A DNA stretch of 15,289 bases from Promethearchaeota archaeon (GCA_019894975.1 JAGXNO010000065.1:1-15289); one strand, 5' to 3'. Shown: positions 347 through 12,500, counted from the stretch's first letter. A program made the numbers and translations. The notes: generated from the letters alone by a model not told the origin.

Positions 347-1096
347 CTATAAACGTCTTAATGAAAAATATAATAAGATAATAATTATAAATCCGATAAG
401 AACAATAAGAACATTTCCAATTTTAGCTAGTGACATCATTGCCAGAAGAAGAATCAATCCAAGGGGATCATCATTTTTAGATTTAAATCTTTTCGATGAT
501 TTTGGTAATTTTACGTGAGTATATTCTCTTCTATATGGTGTTCTTATTATTCTTGGACTAGATGGTATAGATGGTATAGATGTAATATTTTTGAATGCTA
601 TTGTTGTTATTCTCGTGAACATTTTTTCTATATTTTTCCCTGTTTTAATAGAGATTTCCATCGATTTTGATATATTATTCTCTATTTTAAATTTCTTTAT
701 TTGTTCTTTAGATACTTCTCGATTTTGGTTTATATCGGATTTATTTCCTACTAGTAAGAACTGAAAATTATCCATTTTTCCGGGTTTCTTAATATTCTGG
801 AGGGTTTTAGATAAGTAGTTTAAACTATTTGCATTAGAAATATCATACATAAGGATAATTCCGTTTGCACCATTAAGATATGATTTGGTTAGATTAAAAA
901 CCCAGAATGGAGAAGATATCGTCCAGACCATATGTGTTGAAAGAATTCCAAAAGTATTAACTTCTTTTTTTAAAAAATCAACACCAAAAACATGACTATA
1001 TTCTTCAACATATGAAGGATCTATATATTTTGATAATGGTGTTTTACCTACATCCCTATCTGCAAGTAAGCATACTTTGAATAAGTATTCCGACAA
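347..1096 (-). CDS. Rab/Ras-superfamily small GTPase-like protein with degenerate G1/G2/G3 motifs and a C-terminal membrane anchor
   Basis: FKVCLLADRDVGKT (G1 variant), FGVDF (Rab effector-loop-like), YLNGANGIILMYDIS, LLVGNKSD (G4) and EISIKTGKNIEKMF (G5-like). The last ~38 aa are hydrophobic and end in RRL. TTG start with an AT-rich TATA-like element about 25-35 nt upstream. Confidence 0.85.
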   Translation of the reverse strand: MSEYLFKVCLLADRDVGKTPLSKYIDPSYVEEYSHVFGVDFLKKEVNTFGILSTHMVWTISSPFWVFNLTKSYLNGANGIILMYDISNANSLNYLSKTLQNIKKPGKMDNFQFLLVGNKSDINQNREVSKEQIKKFKIENNISKSMEISIKTGKNIEKMFTRITTIAFKNITSIPSIPSSPRIIRTPYRREYTHVKLPKSSKRFKSKNDDPLGLILLLAMMSLAKIGNVLIVLIGFIIIILLYFSLRRL

Positions 1097-1457: not shown

Positions 1458-1865
1458 ATGAAGGATGTAAAAATTATTTCCATAGATAATAGAGGGAGAA
1501 TAGTACTACCGTTGGTGACTAGGAAAAATCTTGGTATAACAACTGATTCACAATTGATGCTTGTAAGCGACTCAGAAACGAAGGAGGTACGGATAACACC
1601 CGTCGGAATTACGAAGGAGGAAAGGCCCATTAAATTTAGGATCACCATGAGTGATGAGCCTGGTTCTTTAGCACAAATTGCATCAACCTTTGGAGATCTT
1701 GGAATTTCTTTGATGTACGGAGAAAGTGTTATAGTAGAAAAATCAAAAACAGCAATTTGGACGGTAATTAGTCCAACTCCGCAAAATATTACTATGGAAG
1801 AATTAAGAGAAGGTCTAATAAAAAACGGAAAAGCACTTAATGTAGATATCATTCCTTTTGATTAA
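1458..1865 (+). CDS. AbrB/MazE/SpoVT-type DNA-binding domain fused to an ACT ligand-binding domain (transcription regulator)
   Basis: N-terminal IDNRGRIVLPLVTRKNLGI fits the AbrB swapped-hairpin signature. C-terminal ITMSDEPGSLAQIASTFGDLGISL fits the ACT signature (D.PG.L..I...F...GI.I). Confidence 0.85.
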   Translation: MKDVKIISIDNRGRIVLPLVTRKNLGITTDSQLMLVSDSETKEVRITPVGITKEERPIKFRITMSDEPGSLAQIASTFGDLGISLMYGESVIVEKSKTAIWTVISPTPQNITMEELREGLIKNGKALNVDIIPFD

Positions 1866-1906: not shown

Positions 1907-2776
1907 ATGGCTAAGAAAAAGAAAAAAGAGAAGAAAAAGAAGGTAGAAGATGTAGATGAGCTTGAGGATATTCAAAGCTATTCTTTAGATAGTGCTTTGC
2001 ATTCTACAAAATCTACTAAAACAACGTTACAGAGTTTAATGGAAGAAGCGGCTGAAGGAAAAGGGTTTGAACTCCCTAAAACAGAAGGAGATGAAAAAAT
2101 TACACCTCGGTTATCTCATGAATCCAGAAGTAAAATAGCAGAAGCATATGCGTTGGAAGATGTCCCGATAACTCATAGAAAACCTTCACAAAAAAGGGAA
2201 AAATTAATACCTCAAACAGAATCAAAACCAGAACCTTCACCTACTCCTGCAAAAACTCAACCTACACCTTCTCCTGTAAAAATTCAGCCTACACCTCGTC
2301 CAAAAATTAAGGTAGAAGCTTCAATTGTTCCTGCTCCTGGTGAAAAAATAGTCGAGGTCAGAGAAGAACCACCTTCAACACCTTCAGATGAAGGTAAGTC
2401 ATCACCAGTAAAAAAAGGTAATATATATGTTAAATTGACGGAATTTTTTGAAGAATTGTTGATGGGATATAATGAAAGATATGAGCGGTGGGAAAATTCA
2501 ACCTCTAATATTCTCTCAATTTTAAGGAAAATGCGGAAAATTACTAAGAAAAATACGGATGATTTAGTTGTTTCTATAAATAATTTATATAAGAAGATCC
2601 AAGCCGATTTAGAACTGTTTAAAGTTAAACGCGACGAGGTTGAGAAAGTTGCGGAAGTGGATATTGAATCTATGTCTGGAAAATTCAAAAGGGTTTTGGG
2701 GTTACTAGAATTACAAGTTAAGGAATATCAATTGAAAAGAGATACTGATGATTTAATACATGAATTGAGTCATTAA
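1907..2776 (+). CDS. Hypothetical protein: polybasic N-terminus, Pro-rich disordered linker, C-terminal helical/coiled-coil domain
   Basis: 289-aa ORF with MAKKKKKEKKKK, a PEPSPTPAKTQPTPSPVKIQPTPRP linker and ~115 aa of amphipathic helices at the C-terminus. It is closely packed with its neighbours. Confidence 0.85.
   Translation: MAKKKKKEKKKKVEDVDELEDIQSYSLDSALHSTKSTKTTLQSLMEEAAEGKGFELPKTEGDEKITPRLSHESRSKIAEAYALEDVPITHRKPSQKREKLIPQTESKPEPSPTPAKTQPTPSPVKIQPTPRPKIKVEASIVPAPGEKIVEVREEPPSTPSDEGKSSPVKKGNIYVKLTEFFEELLMGYNERYERWENSTSNILSILRKMRKITKKNTDDLVVSINNLYKKIQADLELFKVKRDEVEKVAEVDIESMSGKFKRVLGLLELQVKEYQLKRDTDDLIHELSH
2240..2308 (+). repeat. Intragenic 27-bp tandem repeat (about 2.5 units) encoding the Pro-rich linker
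   Basis: cctactcctgcaaaaactcaacctaca and ccttctcctgtaaaaattcagcctaca (23/27 identical), then a partial cctcgtccaaaaatt; they encode PTPAKTQPT, PSPVKIQPT and PRPKI. Confidence 0.7.
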
Positions 2777-2827
2777 ATATAACTTCTTTTCCATAGGATG
2801 TAAAAAATTAATATATATCAGATAAAA

Positions 2828-4018
2828 ATGTCATCTGAAAATACAAATCAAATACGCCCATTAGTTCTTGATATAGGGAGTAAATTTTTTCGACTAGGAT
2901 GGGCTGGGAGTGACTATCCCGATATAATTGCCCCCAGTCTCTATGTTGACAATAGCGATTATTTATTTTCTTCAGATGTAATTGATGGTCTTGAAGATAT
3001 ATTTATTGGTGAAAAATCCGCAGAAAATCAATTGTTTGGAGATGAGGCATTAAAATATTCTAATATACTTAAAGTACATGAATTTAAAAAAGAAAATAAT
3101 TACAATGTCTTTATGAAATTCTTTTTTCATCACTATCAACAATTGAATATTGCTGAAGAAAATCAATTTAAACAACCAATTATAATCATAACCCCTTTTT
3201 TTATGTCTGAATTAGAGAAAACCAAGTTAAGAGATATTTTCTTTAATGTGTTTGATTTCCCGGGGGTTTTATTTCTATCTGAAAGTCAAGGCATCATCTC
3301 TACATTCCGAAAATCTAGCGGAGTAATCATAAATATGGGGGAGGAGAACACTTATTTCACAACTTTTCTACACGGGTTTTCTAATAACATGGCAAGGGAT
3401 ACATTTCCTATAGCAGGAAAGGATTTAACGACTTATCTCCTAAATCTCCTTTTAACACAAATTGTTCATGGAAAATCGATATTTCTTGATAATATAACTA
3501 CAAAGGAGATAAAAGAGAAGTTTTCATTATGTGTTTTAAATCCTGAAGAGGAAATTAAGCGAATAAAAGATGGATTCACAAAATATAATAGTAATATTGA
3601 TTTACCAGATGGAACTAGTTTAGCGATTAGCTCAGAAAGATTTCTTATTTCAGAACCTCTATTCAATCCAAATTTAATCCATATTGATTATATAGGACTA
3701 CCCGAAGCAATATCTAAAGTTATTCGTGTATGGGATAGGGAGAATTGGCAAGAATTGTTGTCAAATATTATTCTTGCAGGAGGAGGGAGTTTAATTCCTG
3801 GTTTAGAGCAAAGATTAAAATTTGAGATTTCAAAATTCTTCTCAGAGAAGCTGAGAGAGCATATTAATGTATTAGCTGTTTCAGGCAGAGAAAATGTTAG
3901 TTGGGTTGGAGCGAGTGTTTTATGGGCTCAGGGAAAATTGAATAAAGGATGGGAGAACAATCCAAAAATCTCTGAAGTAGAAGAAGAACAGGAAAGTAAT
4001 GAACAATTAACTAAATAA
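2828..4018 (+). CDS. Actin-related protein (divergent Asgard actin-family member)
   Basis: Collinear actin motifs: LVLDIGS...GWAGSDYP (phosphate 1), GVIINMGE (phosphate 2), AGKDLTTYL, KEIKEK, LPDG...ERF..SEPLFNP, NIILAGGGSLIPG..QRL (adenosine) and SWVGASVL. Confidence 0.93.
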   Translation: MSSENTNQIRPLVLDIGSKFFRLGWAGSDYPDIIAPSLYVDNSDYLFSSDVIDGLEDIFIGEKSAENQLFGDEALKYSNILKVHEFKKENNYNVFMKFFFHHYQQLNIAEENQFKQPIIIITPFFMSELEKTKLRDIFFNVFDFPGVLFLSESQGIISTFRKSSGVIINMGEENTYFTTFLHGFSNNMARDTFPIAGKDLTTYLLNLLLTQIVHGKSIFLDNITTKEIKEKFSLCVLNPEEEIKRIKDGFTKYNSNIDLPDGTSLAISSERFLISEPLFNPNLIHIDYIGLPEAISKVIRVWDRENWQELLSNIILAGGGSLIPGLEQRLKFEISKFFSEKLREHINVLAVSGRENVSWVGASVLWAQGKLNKGWENNPKISEVEEEQESNEQLTK

Positions 4019-4038
4019 AAGTAGAGAAAAAAGATCTT

Positions 4039-6630
4039 ATGACTGTAAGTTTGGATATAAAACAGGAATTTCTAGCAAGCTTCCAAAAAAAGATAATTAT
4101 TGCACGTAAATTATTAATTGGTGCTAACCATAAATGGGCTTCTAAATTGCTTGAGAATTTAAGAAGGGATATTGAAAGAAATGAATGGTTAGATATCCAA
4201 AAGAAACATCAATTATTAATGATAATCTCAAATTCATGGTGGATATACTTAAATTCTCTCGTACGACGGGAAGGGGGAGAGGTAAAAGTTGATTTGATAA
4301 GATATATTGATGCTTATAAACGATTTTTCTCTTTCTTAGCTAATTTAGATGACTTTTATTTATTTAACAATTTTGGTATTAATCTCCTGAAACAATTCAT
4401 AAAAATTGAAGATTTATCCCAGCAAGGCATTACGAAGTTCATTAATTCCTTCTCTGTCAAGTTATATAATGAAGATGAATATCAAAAATTATTAGAACTT
4501 CAAATTTTGCTAATGTTTTTAAGAAAGTCTGTAGCTCCTTCTAAATTTTTTAATTTAAGCTTAGAAAAACTAGGTAAAACCGTGTTAAAATTAGAACCGA
4601 GTAAGAGGACGTTATTTATATATATGATTTTAGAAGATGTATGCATCAAATATAATTTAATGGAAGATTCCTCTGATTTTGTGAGAATTATTAATAAGAT
4701 TATAGTTAACCGTCTCCCGCAATATTTAAAAAATGAATTCAGTAGTATTAGTAGAATTTCAATAAATGAAAGAAGTTTTACTACAATCTTAGGAGATCTT
4801 GAAGATCTTATCAATTACTTAAATGATATCGGGGAATATTCTTGGATTATAATTATCATTAGGAATATTTTCTCAAAAATGCAGGAATATCAATCATATG
4901 GGGAAGCAGTTACATATATCAGGAAATTTATTGATTTTTCGATTAATAGAAACCGTTTTGAAATAGCCTTTGAGATTTATGATTTCTTAGAAGATATTTT
5001 TATGTATAAGTCAGACCTTTCTTATGATAATCTATTAATTGAGCTTTGGGTTGAAGCTTGTAAAAAATTTGTTGATATGAAAGAGAAAAAGTATATATTA
5101 CAATCTTTAGAAAAGCTGCATAATCATTTAAAAATACCTCAAACGAGTTCTCAAATTTTTCATTATTTTTATACATATAACATACTTTGGCAATTCAAGT
5201 CAATGTTCTTTTCATTAGAACAGAGAGATTTCTGGAGAATGATGTTTTATCGTGCCCTTTTTGAAGAAGGAAATTTCAATATTGCGCAAAAAATAATTTT
5301 ACATCTTGAACAAGATTTTAGTATGTTAATCAAAGATGTCGTTTCATTAAAAAATGAAGTAGAACATCTTAAAGATCAGATCTATTCATTTAACGGTAAA
5401 GCAACCTCTCCAAATTTAGATTTTGATAGCTTTTCCATTAAAAACATGGCAATCAGGATTAATTCTGATGGAAAAATTTCATATCGTATGATCTCTACAG
5501 ATAATCAAATCATTGATGGTCAAGTCAATAATGAATACTGGAATGATACTCAAATATTAGAAATATATAAAGAACTTTTTTTCGAACCTGAAAATCGAAA
5601 ATTCATGTTTAGTCTTAATGAATTTGGGCAATTACTCTATATTTTTTTACCCAAGTTAATTAGAGATTTTTTCAAATCCTTTAAAATTGAAAGCCTTCAG
5701 ACTATACCACAAATATACTTTATTATGGATAACATGACAATTCCGTTTGATTTAATATATGATAATAATTTCTTCTTGTTGAAATATTCAATTGGATATA
5801 AAATAGGGGAAATCCCCCTAGAAGGTATTTCTTTTGAAAAAAGTGTTTCAGATAAATCTTTACAAGACCCGACAGATGAGAAATACAATGTATTATTATT
5901 TGATGGTATCAATTCCACAAATCCTCTAAAATGGAATGAGGAATTACAAAGAAAGGAACTTATATATCCTTTTGTTGCGGGTGTAAATGAAATAAATTAT
6001 ATTATTAATTTATTCAATAACACGAAAGAAATAGACCAAATTTGTACCCTTATTGGCCCAAATTCCACAAGAGAGAAATTATTGGATCAACTTTCCAGAG
6101 ATTTTTATCATATAATAATTTTTGTAGGAAATATATTCTATTCAAAATGGAGTCCGAAAGACAGCTATTTATTAGCAAATGATAATGAAATCATCACATT
6201 CAAAGAAATAAATAATGCATTAAATCATGTTGGCTCAAGATTGCGACCTCTTTTATTTTTTAATGCTCAAATTTTTAATACTGAAGGTCAGAAGTTAAGG
6301 AACGTACTTAAGACTTTTGGGGAGGTTGTTGCTCAATTCGATCAAACAAAATTCACGGGAATTGTCTCAAGAACATACCCACTTTTCAATGAAGAGACAA
6401 AACAGATTACTTCATTATTTTTTCTTAATTTATTCAATAACAATAGTCAAGGAGTATCACTTCTTAAAGCTCGTCAGCAGTGTATCGCAAGTATGATGGA
6501 AGAAGTTGTAGAACAACAATATCAAAATTCTACAGATAAAATGGGTGCTACAAGAATTGATTTAAGAAGTAGCTTAGCAGTATCAAGTTTTTTACTCTTC
6601 GGAAAACCTTGGAAAAATTTAAGCGATTGA
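4039..6630 (+). CDS. Large helical (TPR/solenoid-like) protein with a C-terminal CHAT (caspase/separase clan) domain, predicted catalytically inactive
   Basis: The C-terminal ~340 aa follow CHAT order: FGQLLY..FLP, IPFDLIYD...FLLKYSIG, E...I..LF, STREKLL..L....YHIIIFVGN (HFxGHG position), LLFFNAQ (LxAC position), FF..LF...SQGVSLLKARQ and SFLLFGKP. The N-terminal ~450 aa are helical. Confidence 0.75.
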   Translation: MTVSLDIKQEFLASFQKKIIIARKLLIGANHKWASKLLENLRRDIERNEWLDIQKKHQLLMIISNSWWIYLNSLVRREGGEVKVDLIRYIDAYKRFFSFLANLDDFYLFNNFGINLLKQFIKIEDLSQQGITKFINSFSVKLYNEDEYQKLLELQILLMFLRKSVAPSKFFNLSLEKLGKTVLKLEPSKRTLFIYMILEDVCIKYNLMEDSSDFVRIINKIIVNRLPQYLKNEFSSISRISINERSFTTILGDLEDLINYLNDIGEYSWIIIIIRNIFSKMQEYQSYGEAVTYIRKFIDFSINRNRFEIAFEIYDFLEDIFMYKSDLSYDNLLIELWVEACKKFVDMKEKKYILQSLEKLHNHLKIPQTSSQIFHYFYTYNILWQFKSMFFSLEQRDFWRMMFYRALFEEGNFNIAQKIILHLEQDFSMLIKDVVSLKNEVEHLKDQIYSFNGKATSPNLDFDSFSIKNMAIRINSDGKISYRMISTDNQIIDGQVNNEYWNDTQILEIYKELFFEPENRKFMFSLNEFGQLLYIFLPKLIRDFFKSFKIESLQTIPQIYFIMDNMTIPFDLIYDNNFFLLKYSIGYKIGEIPLEGISFEKSVSDKSLQDPTDEKYNVLLFDGINSTNPLKWNEELQRKELIYPFVAGVNEINYIINLFNNTKEIDQICTLIGPNSTREKLLDQLSRDFYHIIIFVGNIFYSKWSPKDSYLLANDNEIITFKEINNALNHVGSRLRPLLFFNAQIFNTEGQKLRNVLKTFGEVVAQFDQTKFTGIVSRTYPLFNEETKQITSLFFLNLFNNNSQGVSLLKARQQCIASMMEEVVEQQYQNSTDKMGATRIDLRSSLAVSSFLLFGKPWKNLSD

Positions 6631-6727
6631 AAATTGAACTAATAATATAAAAAAATTTGGAATAATAAATATTTATAAAGATAATTTTAATTAATTTATA
6701 CAAGAATTAAATGATATTTAATTTATT

Positions 6728-7264
6728 ATGTCAGACAGAGTACTTGAATTACGTGTAGAAAATAAGCGTTTGAAACAAGAAATAGCTTCATTAGAGAACA
6801 AAATATTAACATTGGTTGGAATGTTTAATATAGAATCATCTGGAACTCAAGAGACTAAAAATGCTCTTAACGATCAATTGCTAAATTTAATATCTTCCAC
6901 TGAAGATCAAATAAATATAGTTACACCCAAAGTAGATGAGTTTTATGCAGGAGAATTAAAGAAACTTGCACAAAAAGGTATTCCTGTGCTTTTAATAATA
7001 AACGATCGTGCAGATTTATCTAAAACATTTCAATCTATTTATGATGATTTGAAAGGTAGTGAAGGGATAAACATCATTAATAATCCCAATGTAAGATATC
7101 TTTTAGTATTCAATACCGATCAAGCTATTTATTCAGGAGGATCTTTAGATAAAGAAGAATTATCGAAATCCATCCTAATTATTACAACCATACAAGAGAA
7201 AGCAAAATTAAGAAAAATAGCAAAAATATTTTCTTTTATGCTTCCATCATTTATGAGAAAGTAA
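6728..7264 (+). CDS. N-terminal coiled coil plus a degenerate PLD-like (HKD-less) domain
   Basis: Heptad pattern in VLELRVENKRLKQEIASLENKILTL. Then LLNLISSTEDQINIVTP...LKKLAQKGIPVLLII...VRYLLVFNTDQAIYSGGSL follows PLD/Nuc or TrmB effector-domain topology with the HxK4D residues absent. Confidence 0.65.
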   Translation: MSDRVLELRVENKRLKQEIASLENKILTLVGMFNIESSGTQETKNALNDQLLNLISSTEDQINIVTPKVDEFYAGELKKLAQKGIPVLLIINDRADLSKTFQSIYDDLKGSEGINIINNPNVRYLLVFNTDQAIYSGGSLDKEELSKSILIITTIQEKAKLRKIAKIFSFMLPSFMRK

Positions 7265-7325: not shown

Positions 7326-9518
7326 ATGGGTATTAATAACAAAATTAATTCCGAAGTAATTGTAAAGAAATTTGGGGTACAATCCGAGATTTATAATGCA
7401 TTTATGAAATTTCTCACAGATAAATCTATTTCAGAAAAACATTTTGAAAAAAACTTTAATCAATGGAAAAAGATATTTAGCAAAATTTATGGAAATGAAA
7501 TCTCTAATGAACTGTTTCTAACGCATACTTATTTTGTCCAGATATTAAATATTATTGTGAGATGTAAGCTGGATTCTATAAGAAATATTAATTCTGAAAA
7601 ACCAATTAGCCTAAGAATCGAAAAACAAATTGAAAACTTGAAGATTTTCGAACTTCACTACTTTTTTTGGACTTCTGTCGGGAATGAACTTCTTAAAATG
7701 GTTGAAAAAGAAATAGAAAATTCGGCAATTGAAAAACAAGACATTTTTAGTCAATTTTATCAACATATCTTTATTTCTAACCTCAGGCATAAAAAAGGAG
7801 AATTTTTTACACCCTCACATCTTGTAGAGGCAATGATCGAAGATTTTTATGAATTTGGGTTAAAAATCTTAGATCCTTCCTGCGGTTCGGGAAATTTTTT
7901 AATTAGAATTATTATTAAGATTCTAGATTCACAAAATTCTCTAATCAATAAGATTAAGGCAATTAACAACGTTTTTGGATTTGATATTAATCCTTTAGCA
8001 ATTATTACTACAAAGGTGAATATTCTTTTATTATTTTTGGAGAATATTATAATTGAAGGAGATCCATTACCTAATATTAATGTTTTTCTTTGTGATTCAT
8101 TATTTCCTCAAGAATATAATTCAATTCTTGAATTTGATAGAAATCACATATTTAATTCATTTGATTTGGTTATAGGGAATCCTCCTTGGTTAACATATAA
8201 AGATTTGTTTGATAAAGAATATCAGATAAAAATTCGCGAATTATCAAATCAACTTGGTATTAAACCTTTAAGTCAATATATTACCCATATAGAACTCGCA
8301 GCAATTTTCTTCTATGCAATACCCTTCTACTTCTTAAAAAAAAAAGGTAAAATTTTTTTTGTTATGCCTAAAAGTGTATTAAATGGTGATCATTGTTATA
8401 AATTTCGAGCTTTTTCTCTATTCAACATAAATCTAGAAATTTGGGATTTCCCAAACAACTATTTTTTCAATGTAGAGCACGTGTGTTTAAAAGCAGAATA
8501 TATTGGAAAAGATTACACAATTTCAATCAAAAAGAAATATCCAATTAAGACGAAAATCTTTAATGATAAATTAAAATTTCAAAAAAATATATTATATTCA
8601 AGTTTAAGTATTGAAAATGATGGTGCGAAATTAATTTTACCCAGTCATGAATTAAAGAAGATTAATAATTTAGATAATAGCCCATATAAAAAGAAATTTT
8701 ATCAGGGAGCTACATTAGTTCCAAGAACACTTGTATTCTTTCAGATTAAAAATAAAAGAGAAAATTATCTTACAATTAATTCTGATACTGATATCTTAAC
8801 ACGAGCAAAGGAAAAGTGGTTACATAAATTTCAGAATAAAGAAATAGAAGATAAATTTCACTTTAAGACATTTTTAAACATTCAACTCCTCCCATTTTAT
8901 TTAAAAGGTCTAAAGGATGTATTTCTGCCAATTACACCCAATTTTATTTTTGATCCTGATTATCTCCAACTTAACCCTAAAGCTCATAGTTTTTATAATG
9001 AAGTAAATCATATTTATCAGACAAATAAGAAAGAAACAAGTAAAATTGAGACCCTTTATGACAATTTAAATTATTGGAATAAACTACAAAAACAAATAGT
9101 GAATAAAGACTTTTTAATTGTATACAATGCAAGTGGTTCCAACCTAAAGGCGGCAGTTATTAATAATGAAGATCAAAAAATCATTGTTGGATCTGAAAAC
9201 TACTACTATTCAACTGATTCAGAAGAAGAAGCTTACTATTTATCAGCAATTTTGAATGCTCCTAAATTATCAAAAATGATAAAACAAATAAAAAGTTCAA
9301 GACACATTCATAAAAGACCATTCCTATTTCCTATACCGATCTTCGATGAAAATAATTCGATTCATAAGATATTAGCAAAAAAGGGAAAAAGTTGTCATAT
9401 TGTGGTTCAAGAAATATTTGTCAATAATCCGAAAATTACTTCTGAGAAAATTAGAGTCTTCATAAATAGAAAATTAAATAAAATAGATGATTTAACCCAA
9501 CAGGTTGTGTTTGAATAA
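7326..9518 (+). CDS. N6-adenine-type DNA methyltransferase (gamma motif order, Type IIG/IIL-like MTase plus target-recognition region)
   Basis: GEFFTP (motif X), ILDPSCGSGNFL (motif I), FGFDINP (motif II) and DLVIGNPPW (motif IV), followed by a long C-terminal TRD-like region. No nuclease domain was recognised. Confidence 0.9.
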   Translation: MGINNKINSEVIVKKFGVQSEIYNAFMKFLTDKSISEKHFEKNFNQWKKIFSKIYGNEISNELFLTHTYFVQILNIIVRCKLDSIRNINSEKPISLRIEKQIENLKIFELHYFFWTSVGNELLKMVEKEIENSAIEKQDIFSQFYQHIFISNLRHKKGEFFTPSHLVEAMIEDFYEFGLKILDPSCGSGNFLIRIIIKILDSQNSLINKIKAINNVFGFDINPLAIITTKVNILLLFLENIIIEGDPLPNINVFLCDSLFPQEYNSILEFDRNHIFNSFDLVIGNPPWLTYKDLFDKEYQIKIRELSNQLGIKPLSQYITHIELAAIFFYAIPFYFLKKKGKIFFVMPKSVLNGDHCYKFRAFSLFNINLEIWDFPNNYFFNVEHVCLKAEYIGKDYTISIKKKYPIKTKIFNDKLKFQKNILYSSLSIENDGAKLILPSHELKKINNLDNSPYKKKFYQGATLVPRTLVFFQIKNKRENYLTINSDTDILTRAKEKWLHKFQNKEIEDKFHFKTFLNIQLLPFYLKGLKDVFLPITPNFIFDPDYLQLNPKAHSFYNEVNHIYQTNKKETSKIETLYDNLNYWNKLQKQIVNKDFLIVYNASGSNLKAAVINNEDQKIIVGSENYYYSTDSEEEAYYLSAILNAPKLSKMIKQIKSSRHIHKRPFLFPIPIFDENNSIHKILAKKGKSCHIVVQEIFVNNPKITSEKIRVFINRKLNKIDDLTQQVVFE

Positions 9519-9529
9519 ACCACATTAAT

Positions 9530-12500
9530 TTACGAAAATTTCTCTTTCCAATTTTCTAATTCTTCAAGAAATTCTTGCCTAACTTCTTCTTCTAATAGAT
9601 CTCTTAGGGATCTCAACTTACTTATCCATTGTCTTAAAGCATTTGCTGCTACTGCTCCATAAGAAGGCAATACAATGTCCGATATATCTTGTAATCCCAT
9701 TGAGAGTTCAGAACCAGTAGATGTGTTTAGTGTTTGAATCAAATTGTTAATTTTTTCATTTATACTATATTCTTCAGTATTTATATTGTCTTCATAATTT
9801 TCTCCTGAATTTTCTATTGATGACCCAAAATCTATTGTTAAGTTTTCTTGATCTGTTTTTGAATATTTTTCCTTCCATTTGAAAAAGGTTAAAACAAAGT
9901 CTTCTTTTATATCGTCATCAAGGGGCTTTCTTATTTTCCGAAGTTTACTTATCCAATCCTTAATTTCTTTTAGTTCCATCGAATAGCCTTCAGTTTCTAG
10001 AATTATATCTACGATATTTTGAATTTTCTTACTAATATCTATTCCGTTTAATTCTGCAAAATTTGTTTCGACTTCATCAAAAATCTCTTTCATTTTCATA
10101 GCTGGGTCAATTTCTTTACCAACAACTTCAGATTCTGAAGAATTTAAGTCATCAGAGTGAAATTGTGATTGTGTTAATCCCGGACTTATGTATTCTTCTG
10201 TGATTTCAGACATATAGTCTTTCTGAGGAAGATTATTAACGGGTTCTTCGGTATTGGTTTTTTCTTTTACTAAATTTGGACCTAAAATACCATTTCTCCA
10301 ATTTAGAAAATCAAATTTTATTTTTTCTTTAAGTGGATCATCTAATATTTTATCTAATTTAGATAAGTTCTTCTTCCACTCCAAAATTTGTGAATATCCT
10401 TGCAACCTTAAAATAACTTCAATGAAATTATCAATCTGGTCCCCTAACTCTACTCCTTTTAAGTCATCTATTTTCTCCAAAAAGAGATCAAAAAGACTAT
10501 TTACTTTTTCAGGATCCAGGGGTTCAACTTCTTTATCTTCAGATTCAAGTGGAAGAATTATTTTTTTTGTTGGAATTTCATCTATAATTGGAGATCTAAA
10601 CTCAGGAGGGTACATTAATTCTAAGGAGGAAAATTCTTTATTTAATTTATTTAGTTCTTCGATTACATACGTTTTCATATCATCTTCTAAAGGATAAGGT
10701 AGTAATTCTAATTTACTAACCAATAGTTTGAATTCTAAAACATTAAGAGAAATTCCGTTCTTTTCAAAAGCTACATCTAGAAGATTCTTTAATTTTCTGG
10801 ATATTTTCTTTCCACTATAATCGTTAATATTTTCAATAATCAGATTAAATCCATTATTGATTTGTAATTCCCTAGTTGGTTTTGCTTCCTTGATAATTTT
10901 TAAAATATTTGGTTGAATCAACTCAATTAAAGGTTTAAAAGATGTAGTAAATCCAGTAACTTCATATTTAGATTCATTTTTAGTTTTTTGACAAATACCA
11001 AAAGCCAAAAATATATCGTCTCCAACAATTGCAGCAACGTTATTATTCTTAAGTGTTAGATATTCAATATTTTTCTTTTTCAAAGCTTTAACATGTTTAT
11101 TGTTATGAGGTTCTGAAGAAATAATTTTTATTTTTAATCCAGTGGATTTCATTTCTGCTTCGATATTTTCTTCAGCATCTAGGTTATCTTCGATTTCTTT
11201 TTCTCCCGTTTGTTCTAGTTTTTCTACTTTCTTAATTTTTAAATAATCAATTTTCCATTTCTCAATATCTTCTAATATTAAATATTGGGTATTCTGATCA
11301 AGGTATTTCCTTATAACTAATAATCTATTTAACCAACCTTGAACATTATCGATAATAAGAGACTCAGGATTAATCTCTGAAACTAGGGCTAAAATATTCG
11401 CAACATCATGGCTCAACTCATATCCTTTGAGATCAGATACTCTTTTTGCTGTCGCACCTATTTTTTCTAGCAATTCTCTTTTTTGTTCTTTATTCATAGA
11501 CGGCTTAGCTTTTGAAGGTACAACCGGTTTCTTTAAAGCTGATGAAGTCTTTTTTGATAACAGTTCGGGTACAGTTTCTTCAGCATATTCTAATTTCAAT
11601 TCCTCTAGGGGTATGAAATCTTCTATTTTTGGAACGATTATTGTTAAAGTTTCTTTAGTGTTTTCTATTAAAAGATGGATCAATTCTTTCATTTTTTCTC
11701 GACTAGAAAGAGGAAGTAATTTGTCAGCTGGAACCTGATTTTTGCTAATATAATCTGTTAATATATTGAACAATGATTTTTCAAATGTATCTAAATTTTT
11801 TAAAGGTAAAGAATTTGGGTTCTGGATAAGTTCAGTACTTCTCTTATCAATTGAATCGCCCAGCTTTCTAATAAATGTTTTGAAGGATTCGACTATAGAA
11901 GGAATATTTGTCGGATCCATTTCATTGATAATGTCTCTAAATTGAATGAACATATTTGAAATAACTTCTTCAGATTCTTCATTTTTCTTAGTTATCGCTC
12001 TCATCACGCGTTCAATATCAATTTCATTTACTATTGATTTGTCTTTTAATTTCGCAATTAATTCATTCACATCAGCTAATAAAACTTGAGAGAATTTTTT
12101 TACATTTTTCTCGACTTCAGATAAAATCTCTGTTGTTTGATTATCATTCGTTTGATTAGAAATTAATTCTATTAAATCTTGGCTAATAAGCTCAATATCT
12201 TGGAGAATACCATCTTGAAATTTCTCGATAGGAGAACCATCATTTTTTATTTCACCTTCTTCTTCCTCTGAAATTGCATTAAAATTAGAAAAAGCATAAA
12301 TTATAGCTGCAAAAGGGGGAAGAAAAAGATAATGAGGTAAAATATCAGAGTTTATTAGCAGAACTAATTTTTTATCTACAAGTTTGTGAATTATTTTCTT
12401 TACTTTAATCTTCGAGGATTTTGGTAAAAACGTTTGAATTTCTGCCAACGTAAGTGGAATTTTACCTAATCCTTCCCGGAAAATTTTAATTCCATCAGCA

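Follow-up and report, generated by a model that had tools for sequence, protein, structure and literature searches.

An Asgard archaeal gene cluster for an actin-related protein, an inactive CHAT solenoid protein, and two further putative non-catalytic partners: a candidate structural assembly

Introduction

To our knowledge, eukaryotic actin-related proteins (Arps) never act alone, being found as subunits of Arp2/3, dynactin, and the chromatin remodellers. In dynactin and Arp2/3, the Arp is not self-polymerising, its pointed-end face being held by non-actin subunits and its barbed-end face being left for actin contacts; in HSA-Arp modules, a helix holds the Arps at the barbed end. Among prokaryotes, the crenactin arcade cluster of Thermoproteales (with its arcadins), ParMRC, and the MamK loci set an actin beside dedicated partner genes, crenactin and ParM being ATPases that polymerise. 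In Asgard genomes there are genes for several Arps, none of which, as far as we know, has an established partner or function. Described here is a cluster of four genes, termed g1, g2 (the Arp gene), g3, and g4, at positions 1907-7264 of a 15,289-nucleotide stretch from a Promethearchaeota archaeon (GCA_019894975.1, JAGXNO010000065.1:1-15289; this whole stretch is called the window), which belongs to a source genome of 3.9 Mb that is 95% complete and has a G+C content of ~28%.

The cluster resembles the above systems only in part. Like the arcade, ParMRC, and MamK loci, it would by analogy place a prokaryotic actin-family gene beside dedicated partners; unlike crenactin and ParM, its Arp has a degenerate nucleotide site and a pointed end that is predicted to be blocked, and its partner proteins are non-homologous. 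The proposed likeness to the dynactin pointed-end complex (Arp11, p62, p25, and p27) and to Arp2/3 would be one of mechanism only, given that the partner folds are unrelated (a TPR-CHAT pseudo-protease here versus p62/p25/p27 or ARPC1-5), the cluster has one Arp rather than two, the host is an archaeon, and action on filaments is here a proposal. The closest relatives of g3 in structure are Csx29, of the type III-E CRISPR Craspase, and separase, which are its best structural matches over the full length, share its order of helical repeats followed by a CHAT caspase fold, and hold a partner protein by the helical part, as is proposed from modelling for g3. Both, however, are active His-Cys proteases, whereas the g3 family has Asn at the His position and Gln, Lys, His, Val, or Arg at the Cys position, and g3 occurs in a context without CRISPR or cohesin. 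As for g4, the C-terminal region of TrmB and TrmBL2 likewise combines a coiled coil with a PLD fold devoid of the HKD motif, but g4 is missing their winged-helix DNA-binding domain; FAM83 proteins employ the non-catalytic PLD fold of DUF1669 as a scaffold, and a similar use may be proposed for g4. An invariant LPSFMR tail in g4 has not been noticed in the TrmB/TrmBL2 or FAM83 families.

Candidatus Lokiarchaeum ossiferum, which has been brought into culture and whose Lokiactin cytoskeleton is established, carries the cluster as well. The one study found to name the Arp gene of this organism (Rodrigues-Oliveira et al., 2022; PMC9834061) deals with that gene in isolation and says nothing of its neighbours, partners, or function. 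Full-text literature searches (Asgard CHAT proteins, separase, ARP operons, and the accession UYP47647) yielded this paper and general reviews only, with no description of the cluster and no later paper naming UYP47647.1, in keeping with the original prediction, made from the window's sequence, which knew of no account of this combination of genes. On balance, the analysis favours, with somewhat better than even confidence, a non-catalytic assembly built around the Arp, in which g3 sits on the pointed end and the whole likely serves as a cap, anchor, or seed for Lokiactin filaments. The evidence is computational, apart from published reverse-transcription quantitative PCR (RT-qPCR) on the L. 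ossiferum orthologue and from metatranscriptome contigs.

Gene organisation and conservation

The four open reading frames (ORFs) are separated by 51 nt (g1-g2), 20 nt (g2-g3), and 97 nt (g3-g4), and two possible expression signals can be read in the sequence around them:

1907-2776, plus strand: g1, ORF of 289 amino acids (aa)
2828-4018, plus strand: g2 (Arp), ORF of 396 aa
4039-6630, plus strand: g3, ORF of 863 aa
6728-7264, plus strand: g4, ORF of 178 aa
1870-1889, plus strand: AT-rich, TATA-like stretch, 18-37 nt 5' of the g1 start codon
7272-7281, plus strand: run of ten T, 8 nt past the g4 stop codon, a likely archaeal oligo-T terminator

An ORF listing reproduced the coordinates of the four co-directional genes and the gaps that the original prediction had given, and the ten T that it took for a terminator do lie just downstream of g4. 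The promoter-like element that it placed in front of g1 fared less well; an AT-rich stretch is present, but it carries little weight because, in DNA of such composition, stretches of this kind are indistinguishable from background.

Approximately 100 related loci, fetched around matches to a g3 profile, belong to three families of a single Lokiarchaeia order, namely the window's own family (f1), the Lokiarchaeum ossiferum family (f2), and a third (f3). The order and strand of g1-g2-g3-g4 are identical in all but one of the loci that reach far enough, the exception being a rearranged locus in genome G170. Protein identity between families is 22-42%, and the flanks of the window (a methyltransferase, a 1011-aa protein, and a helicase) are not conserved around the clusters of other families. 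The four-gene arrangement is far beyond chance, and the comparison of gene neighbourhoods proposed along with the original prediction speaks for that prediction, the cluster being kept in three families while its flanks change. Full-length g3 was recovered by profile search in 118 of 134 genomes of f1, 7 of 14 of f2, and the single genome of f3 (1/1); outside the order, in 400 genomes of the phylum, the search gave only unrelated CHAT proteins that match the CHAT domain alone. In the five control genomes checked, the cluster is single-copy.

The junction between the Arp gene and g3 is the tightest of the three. Median gaps across the loci are 54 nt (g1-g2), 24 nt (g2-g3), and 96 nt (g3-g4), and in two homologues, CR_4 and G039, the last 4 nt of the Arp gene are shared with the beginning of g3; the two genes are 1-5 nt apart in genus g9 of f2 and 3 nt apart in the closed genome G038 (locus L005). 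Runs of five or more T occur in the g2-g3 gap of only 1 of 31 loci and after g4 in 24 of the 31.

The same two genes also come and go together. In five genomes from two f2 genera, one of them closed (4.36 Mb), g1 and g4 are adjacent and both g3 and an Arp orthologue are absent; the best actin-profile match in these genomes reaches at most 201 bits, as against 403-642 bits for true Arp orthologues in control genomes. Given this joint absence, the Arp and g3 behave as one unit inside an older g1-g4 pair, and the cluster is made up of two modules, one nested in the other, and is not an indivisible whole. As the four-gene form is present in all three families, loss is the simplest explanation for the two-gene form. 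A further set of five genomes, from f1 and 92-99% complete, is without all four genes, but was not counted as co-loss; these genomes are also without the upstream ACT-domain gene and the orthologous methyltransferase, and their absences are uninformative because the whole neighbourhood is missing, possibly through an assembly gap or a larger deletion.

Several irregular loci were encountered along the way. In G170 (L101 and L135), one contig has a g3 homologue with a g1 homologue after it, and g4 is located on another contig, divergent from an adjoining membrane protein. Insertions of 1-3.8 kb, which may be mobile elements, are found inside the cluster in a few genomes (L036 and L060, in the g1-g2 gap; L084, in the g3-g4 gap; and L086), the L086 insert (L086:2166-6000) lying between the Arp gene and g3 and consisting mostly of opposite-strand ORFs. 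Lastly, in the closed genome G005 of the window's genus (L018, ~8146-10644), g3 is truncated, with 784 of 863 residues aligning, and g4 was not found, which suggests that the 3' end of the cluster is decaying in that lineage.

Loss of catalytic residues in g2, g3, and g4

The original prediction held that three of the four proteins have enzyme folds (actin, CHAT, and PLD) in which catalytic residues are altered or missing; this was verified for all three, the losses in the Arp, g3, and g4 being confirmed. The actin fold of g2 is unambiguous, with a score of 159.9 bits against Pfam Actin (PF00022; cut-off 27) over residues 8-375. Among PDB sequences, it matches actins best (110-129 bits, E 1e-30 to 1e-36), followed closely by Arp2 (109 bits), and other eukaryotic Arp classes are absent among the 60 PDB sequence matches listed; by these matches, g2 is not nearer to any one eukaryotic Arp class (Arp1-Arp11) than to actin. 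Relative to yeast actin, Gly15 of phosphate loop 1 is replaced by Lys19, and the phosphate-2 (P2) loop DSGDGVTH reads NMGEENTY, in which Asp154 becomes Asn169, Asp157-Gly158 becomes Glu172-Glu173, and His161 becomes Tyr176. Actin Gln137 (Gln154 in g2) and the adenosine loop GGGSLIPG are retained. Of the residues examined for an intact ATPase site (Gly15, Asp154/Gly158, His161, and Gln137), only the Gln is thus kept, and the P2 loop is degenerate in every Arp orthologue, albeit differently by lineage. In the same alignment, the barbed-end cleft loop of g2 is two residues shorter than that of actin.

Besides g2, the source genome holds two further actin-family genes. One of these (G000, contig C55; L002:946-2466, minus strand) encodes 507 aa and carries, in the C-terminal third of the actin fold, an insertion of ~150 aa with several CxxC pairs that is zinc-ribbon-like; ORFs of similar size (506-560 aa) occur in related genomes.

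The g3 protein consists of a helical solenoid (residues 1-450), a small beta unit (467-496), and a CHAT domain (500-863), as modelled by AlphaFold2 from a 27-sequence alignment with a mean predicted local distance difference test (pLDDT) of 85 and a predicted template modelling score of 0.80, the solenoid comprising ~22 helices. A Foldseek search with this model returned the TPR-CHAT protein Csx29 first (E 1.5e-10); next came DdvA, an anti-sigma factor with a CHAT domain, followed by the separases of human, yeast, and worm and by SAVED-CHAT proteins, with a probability of 1.00 for all of these folds. Sequence searches are far less telling, in that g3 of the window alone has no Pfam match and a PDB profile search with the g3 alignment gave nothing even at E 10, although 6 of 12 g3 homologues match the CHAT family PF12770 (best E 3e-6). 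To locate the catalytic positions, nine g3 sequences were aligned by MAFFT with seven canonical Asgard CHAT proteins:

6130-6132, plus strand: codon of Asn698, at the position of the CHAT catalytic His
6268-6270, plus strand: codon of Gln744, at the position of the CHAT catalytic Cys

The GH of canonical CHAT proteins is GN in the g3 family and Ile in the CR_4 homologue, and the Cys of canonical NAC/NSC is Gln744 here and Lys, His, Val, or Arg in the eight other g3 sequences, never Cys. On this alignment, g3 is a CHAT-fold protein whose catalytic His-Cys dyad is lost in all aligned homologues. The family additionally carries an insertion of its own, with invariant N625, P629, and W632.

For g4, the AlphaFold2 model (pLDDT 87) comprises a coiled-coil helix of 28 residues (2-29) and then a PLD fold. 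Foldseek matched it to NucT (E 9e-9; template modelling scores 0.65/0.73), Nuc, TrmBL2, TrmB, Zucchini, FAM83 DUF1669, and PLD1/2/3, and its Pfam PLDc_2 score is 21.5 bits, under the cut-off of 27. The HxK(x)4D (HKD) motif is absent, with no conserved His or Lys in its place, where the family consensus reads NPNVxYLLVFN...YSGGSL.

Predicted Arp-g3 interface

In order to model the pair, the whole Arp was co-folded with residues 1-455 of g3, which hold the complete solenoid, in three runs with row-matched alignments of 37 loci. The runs gave ipSAE interface scores of 0.74, 0.74, and 0.75 against 0.28 for the best of three controls, shared at least 97% of their contacts, and had partner pLDDT values of at least 85. 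In calibration, the chosen mark was reached by 58 of 80 solved complexes and by 2 of 110 mismatched pairs, a comparison that is rough since custom alignments were used here. It is unlikely that the result reflects a structure already known to the predictor, because no similar complex has been solved. The co-fold model thus supports binding of the Arp by g3, and the co-folding in pairs that had been suggested for the four proteins has yielded a confident predicted interface for this one of the six possible pairs. Its two sides are as follows:

2951-3010, plus strand: Arp residues 42-61, the remodelled DNase I-binding loop (D-loop) region of subdomain 2 (~actin 35-55), core of the predicted g3 contact
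4090-4461, plus strand: g3 residues 18-141, the face of the solenoid that is predicted to bind the Arp (co-fold contacts)

In the model, g3 residues 18-141 contact Arp residues 42-61, 76-81, 219-221, and 260-262, which in actin numbering are the D-loop region, the ~62-71 strand (subdomain 2), and the ~200-203 and 243-245 loops (subdomain 4). In F-actin, the surfaces of subdomains 2 and 4 make the longitudinal contacts with the next subunit at the pointed end, and it is this pointed-end face of the Arp that the g3 solenoid is predicted to cover. The interface includes invariant or nearly invariant residues of g3 (L25, N30, H31, W33, I87, D91, F97, L100, I131, and S137), and Arp residues G54 and L55 are nearly invariant across orthologues. 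With burial ignored, interface positions are more conserved than the remainder by permutation (p 0.02 for g3 and 0.07 for the Arp).

Further features of g1 and g4

The g1 protein opens with a polybasic Lys run (MAKKKKKEKKKK) and comprises a short conserved helix (residues ~24-46), a variable linker rich in Pro and charged residues, and a helical domain of ~125 aa (~165-289), conservation in alignment A5 rising from 0.2 for the linker to 0.6-0.7 for the C-terminal domain. The description of this protein as polybasic, Pro-rich, and helical thus holds for the window, but conservation across homologues is limited to the N-terminal Lys run and the C-terminal helical domain. No Pfam family matches g1, and a structure search of the ESM Atlas with its helical domain found generic helical hairpins only. 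A WH2/thymosin-like motif was considered and is not claimed; the N-terminal helix has a KKTET-like motif in f1 that f2 homologues do not keep.

The most conserved feature of g4 is its C-terminal tail:

7241-7258, plus strand: LPSFMR tail of g4, with L172, P173, F175, M176, and R177 invariant in 25 sequences

The tail is intact in the g4 proteins of genomes lacking g3. This weakens a candidate role considered for its FMR residues, that of a pseudo-substrate in the dead CHAT pocket, since the tail is fully kept where g3 is absent. No helix-turn-helix family matches g4, and the protein begins with its coiled coil, the N-terminal winged-helix domain of TrmB-type proteins being absent. Remoter g4-like proteins, without an adjoining g1, are present in other Lokiarchaeia orders.

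Expression and the cultured carrier

In the single-contig genome of L. ossiferum (6,035,313 bp), both published RT-qPCR primers for UYP47647.1 match the Arp gene of a g1-Arp-g3-g4 cluster, and UYP47647.1 is the orthologue of g2. It is transcribed, at a level far below that of Lokiactin, and was placed among the Asgard and eukaryotic ARPs (Rodrigues-Oliveira et al., 2022; PMC9834061). For the window itself, sediment metatranscriptome contigs of 95-99% identity bridge the g1-g2 gap (2487-2878) and the g2-g3 gap (3557-4239), with further coverage in parts of g3 and g4, consistent with expression of the cluster and with transcription through these two junctions; holes in this coverage, e.g., 4415-5620, are uninformative. 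As an aside on the L. ossiferum gene, its Arp frame (L100:10700-11830, minus strand) has no ATG, GTG, or TTG near the conserved N-terminus, the first such codon lying ~55 residues in, and the gene probably starts at a non-canonical codon.

Proposed role and alternative explanations

The inference of an Arp-containing, non-catalytic complex, with which the original prediction closed, has gained support from the synteny, the Arp-g3 co-fold interface, and the loss of catalytic residues. Its core would be a one-to-one pair in which the g3 solenoid clamps the D-loop region of the Arp (subdomain 2) together with the tip of subdomain 4. So bound, the Arp could not accept a subunit at its pointed end, and the barbed-end face alone would be free; turnover of ATP is probably absent. 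This unit would sit within the older pair of g1 and g4, which we infer to be part of the same particle and which, with a polybasic head, flexible linker, and helical domain in the one and a coiled-coil pseudo-PLD in the other, would most likely tether or localise it; in f2, a polytopic membrane protein is encoded beside the g1-g4 pair. By analogy with dynactin and Arp2/3, the most likely task of the assembly would then be to occupy the pointed ends of Lokiactin filaments, whether as cap, anchor, or nucleation seed. The fullest form of the proposal, namely the first multi-subunit Arp machine outside eukaryotes, in which a separase-like pseudo-protease grips a non-polymerising Arp by the pointed end to cap, anchor, or seed Lokiactin filaments while g1, as a polybasic adaptor, and a dimer of the pseudo-PLD tether it to the membrane, is possible but rather doubtful.

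If this fullest form is correct, the principle that an Arp works only within a dedicated scaffold would be older than eukaryotes, its Asgard origin having involved subunits that are not related to the components of Arp2/3 or dynactin. The cluster would also offer a clear case of an assembly built wholly from pseudo-enzymes, with an architecture of the separase/Csx29 type reused as a pure scaffold. In more practical terms, it supplies three candidate Arp partners and one specific predicted interface, all of which can be tested in L. ossiferum.

A number of observations weigh against the proposed assembly, and several of them would equally suit four co-regulated neighbours with separate functions and no common particle. 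The binding of g3 to the Arp is a prediction, from a co-fold that spans half of g3 and a single pair, and any action on Lokiactin is drawn by analogy; docking of the Arp on actin is moreover not assured, because the barbed-end cleft loop is two residues short. No Arp-g3 (actin plus CHAT) fusion protein was found in what was a weak search for long joined proteins. Of 31 loci, 19 have a run of five or more T in the g1-g2 gap, and the g3-g4 gap is long (~96 nt) and AT-rich; the four genes therefore need not share a single transcript, nor can the RNA contigs, in which DNA carry-over is possible, prove one. The persistence of g1 and g4 without the Arp and g3 means that their role may be unrelated to actin. 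Separate functions nonetheless appear improbable, as the gene order has been kept at 22-42% identity while the flanks were reshuffled, the Arp stop and g3 start overlap or abut, the Arp-g3 co-fold exceeded its controls, and, to judge from sequence, none of the four proteins seems to have an enzymatic activity able to act alone.

Other explanations accept a working pair or complex and assign it a different purpose. Because the predicted contact would block the very face that the Arp needs for filament entry, g3 might be a regulated holder instead of a structural subunit, sequestering an inactive Arp and freeing it on a signal after the logic of securin and separase or of anti-sigma factors; the signal could be sensed via the PLD-like pocket of g4, whose fold resembles the TrmB ligand-binding domain, or via the upstream ACT-domain protein. 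Such regulation would suit the structural neighbours of g3, DdvA and separase, both of which are controlled by bound partners, as well as the genes directly upstream, which encode the ACT-domain protein in f1 and f3 and ArsR-type and response-regulator proteins in L. ossiferum. Against this, the tight translational coupling points to a pair that is constitutive and stoichiometric, the degenerate nucleotide site makes polymerisation of a freed Arp unlikely, and both ligand and signal are hypothetical, so sequestration is considered unlikely, if less so than the readings that follow. There is little to recommend, on the whole, a module acting on DNA or chromatin in the manner of INO80, SWR1, or BAF, with the g1 head and a TrmBL2-like g4 as DNA-binding parts. 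The Lys run of g1, the resemblance of g4 to the archaeal chromatin protein TrmBL2 and to TrmB regulators, and the f1 neighbours (a DNA methyltransferase, joined within the genus by a protein whose N-terminus is TrmB-like) all fit it, but g4 has no winged-helix domain, the cluster has no conserved helicase or Snf2 ATPase, the methyltransferase is limited to f1 while the conserved extra neighbour in f2 is a membrane protein, and the remodeller Arps are held by a helix at the barbed end rather than by a solenoid at the pointed end. More improbable still, to the point of being nearly negligible, is an anti-virus defence island, in which the CHAT and PLD proteins would be protease and nuclease effectors next to a methyltransferase. 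Defence effectors often contain CHAT or PLD domains, and the downstream gene does encode a type IIG-like N6-adenine methyltransferase; yet every homologue has lost the active sites of the two effectors, the methyltransferase adjoins the cluster in f1 only, and the cluster is single-copy in the control genomes with neighbours that are stable within a family. Likewise, PADLOC-DB gave no match for g1, the Arp, or g4 and a single weak one for g3 (PDC-M13A, E 6e-4, residues 457-500), its restriction-modification-type models matching the neighbouring methyltransferase only. The assembly around the Arp, with g3 on its pointed end, remains the favoured explanation.

Neighbouring genes

Three further genes of the window, together with one from f2, lie near the cluster:

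1458-1865, plus strand: g0c, ACT-domain protein of 135 aa (Pfam ACT, E 3.8e-5, below the curated cut-off)
7326-9518, plus strand: N6-adenine DNA methyltransferase of 730 aa, type IIG-like
347-1096, minus strand: small GTPase of the Ras family, hydrophobic at its C-terminus (Pfam Ras, 92 bits), upstream of the cluster
L005:11436-12650 (plus strand), L100:6243-7385 (minus strand), and L125:6047-7261 (minus strand): polytopic membrane protein of f2, 380-405 aa

The g0c gene is co-directional with the cluster and directly 5' of g1 in f1 and f3 (median gap 47 nt), and is absent in f2. Residues 1-50 of its product look, in sequence, like a DNA-binding hairpin of the AbrB/SpoVT type, and g0c may be a candidate local regulator, outside the core cluster. 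An antisense ORF (1409-1852) that overlaps it is less conserved and probably spurious. In L. ossiferum, the position directly upstream of the cluster is occupied by ArsR-type and response-regulator proteins.

The membrane protein of f2 has ~10 hydrophobic segments by hydropathy count and no Pfam family. Its gene follows g4 co-directionally in all five f2 loci that extend far enough (5/5), also follows g4 in the closed genome with the two-gene form, where the Arp and g3 are missing, and in G170 lies near g4 on the opposite strand. It was considered as a fifth member of the cluster and set aside, as it is confined to f2 and was not found in f1 and f3 genomes, including the source genome (G000), G002, and G026.

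Downstream of g4, the 730-aa methyltransferase matches models of type IIG restriction-methylases, of MmeI/Eco57I, and of MADS mad2 over its methylase part only, and its position is kept within f1 only; the neighbours within the window's genus also include a protein that is TrmB-like at its N-terminus. Elsewhere in the source genome (G000:C120), there is a paralogue of the methyltransferase with 38% identity.

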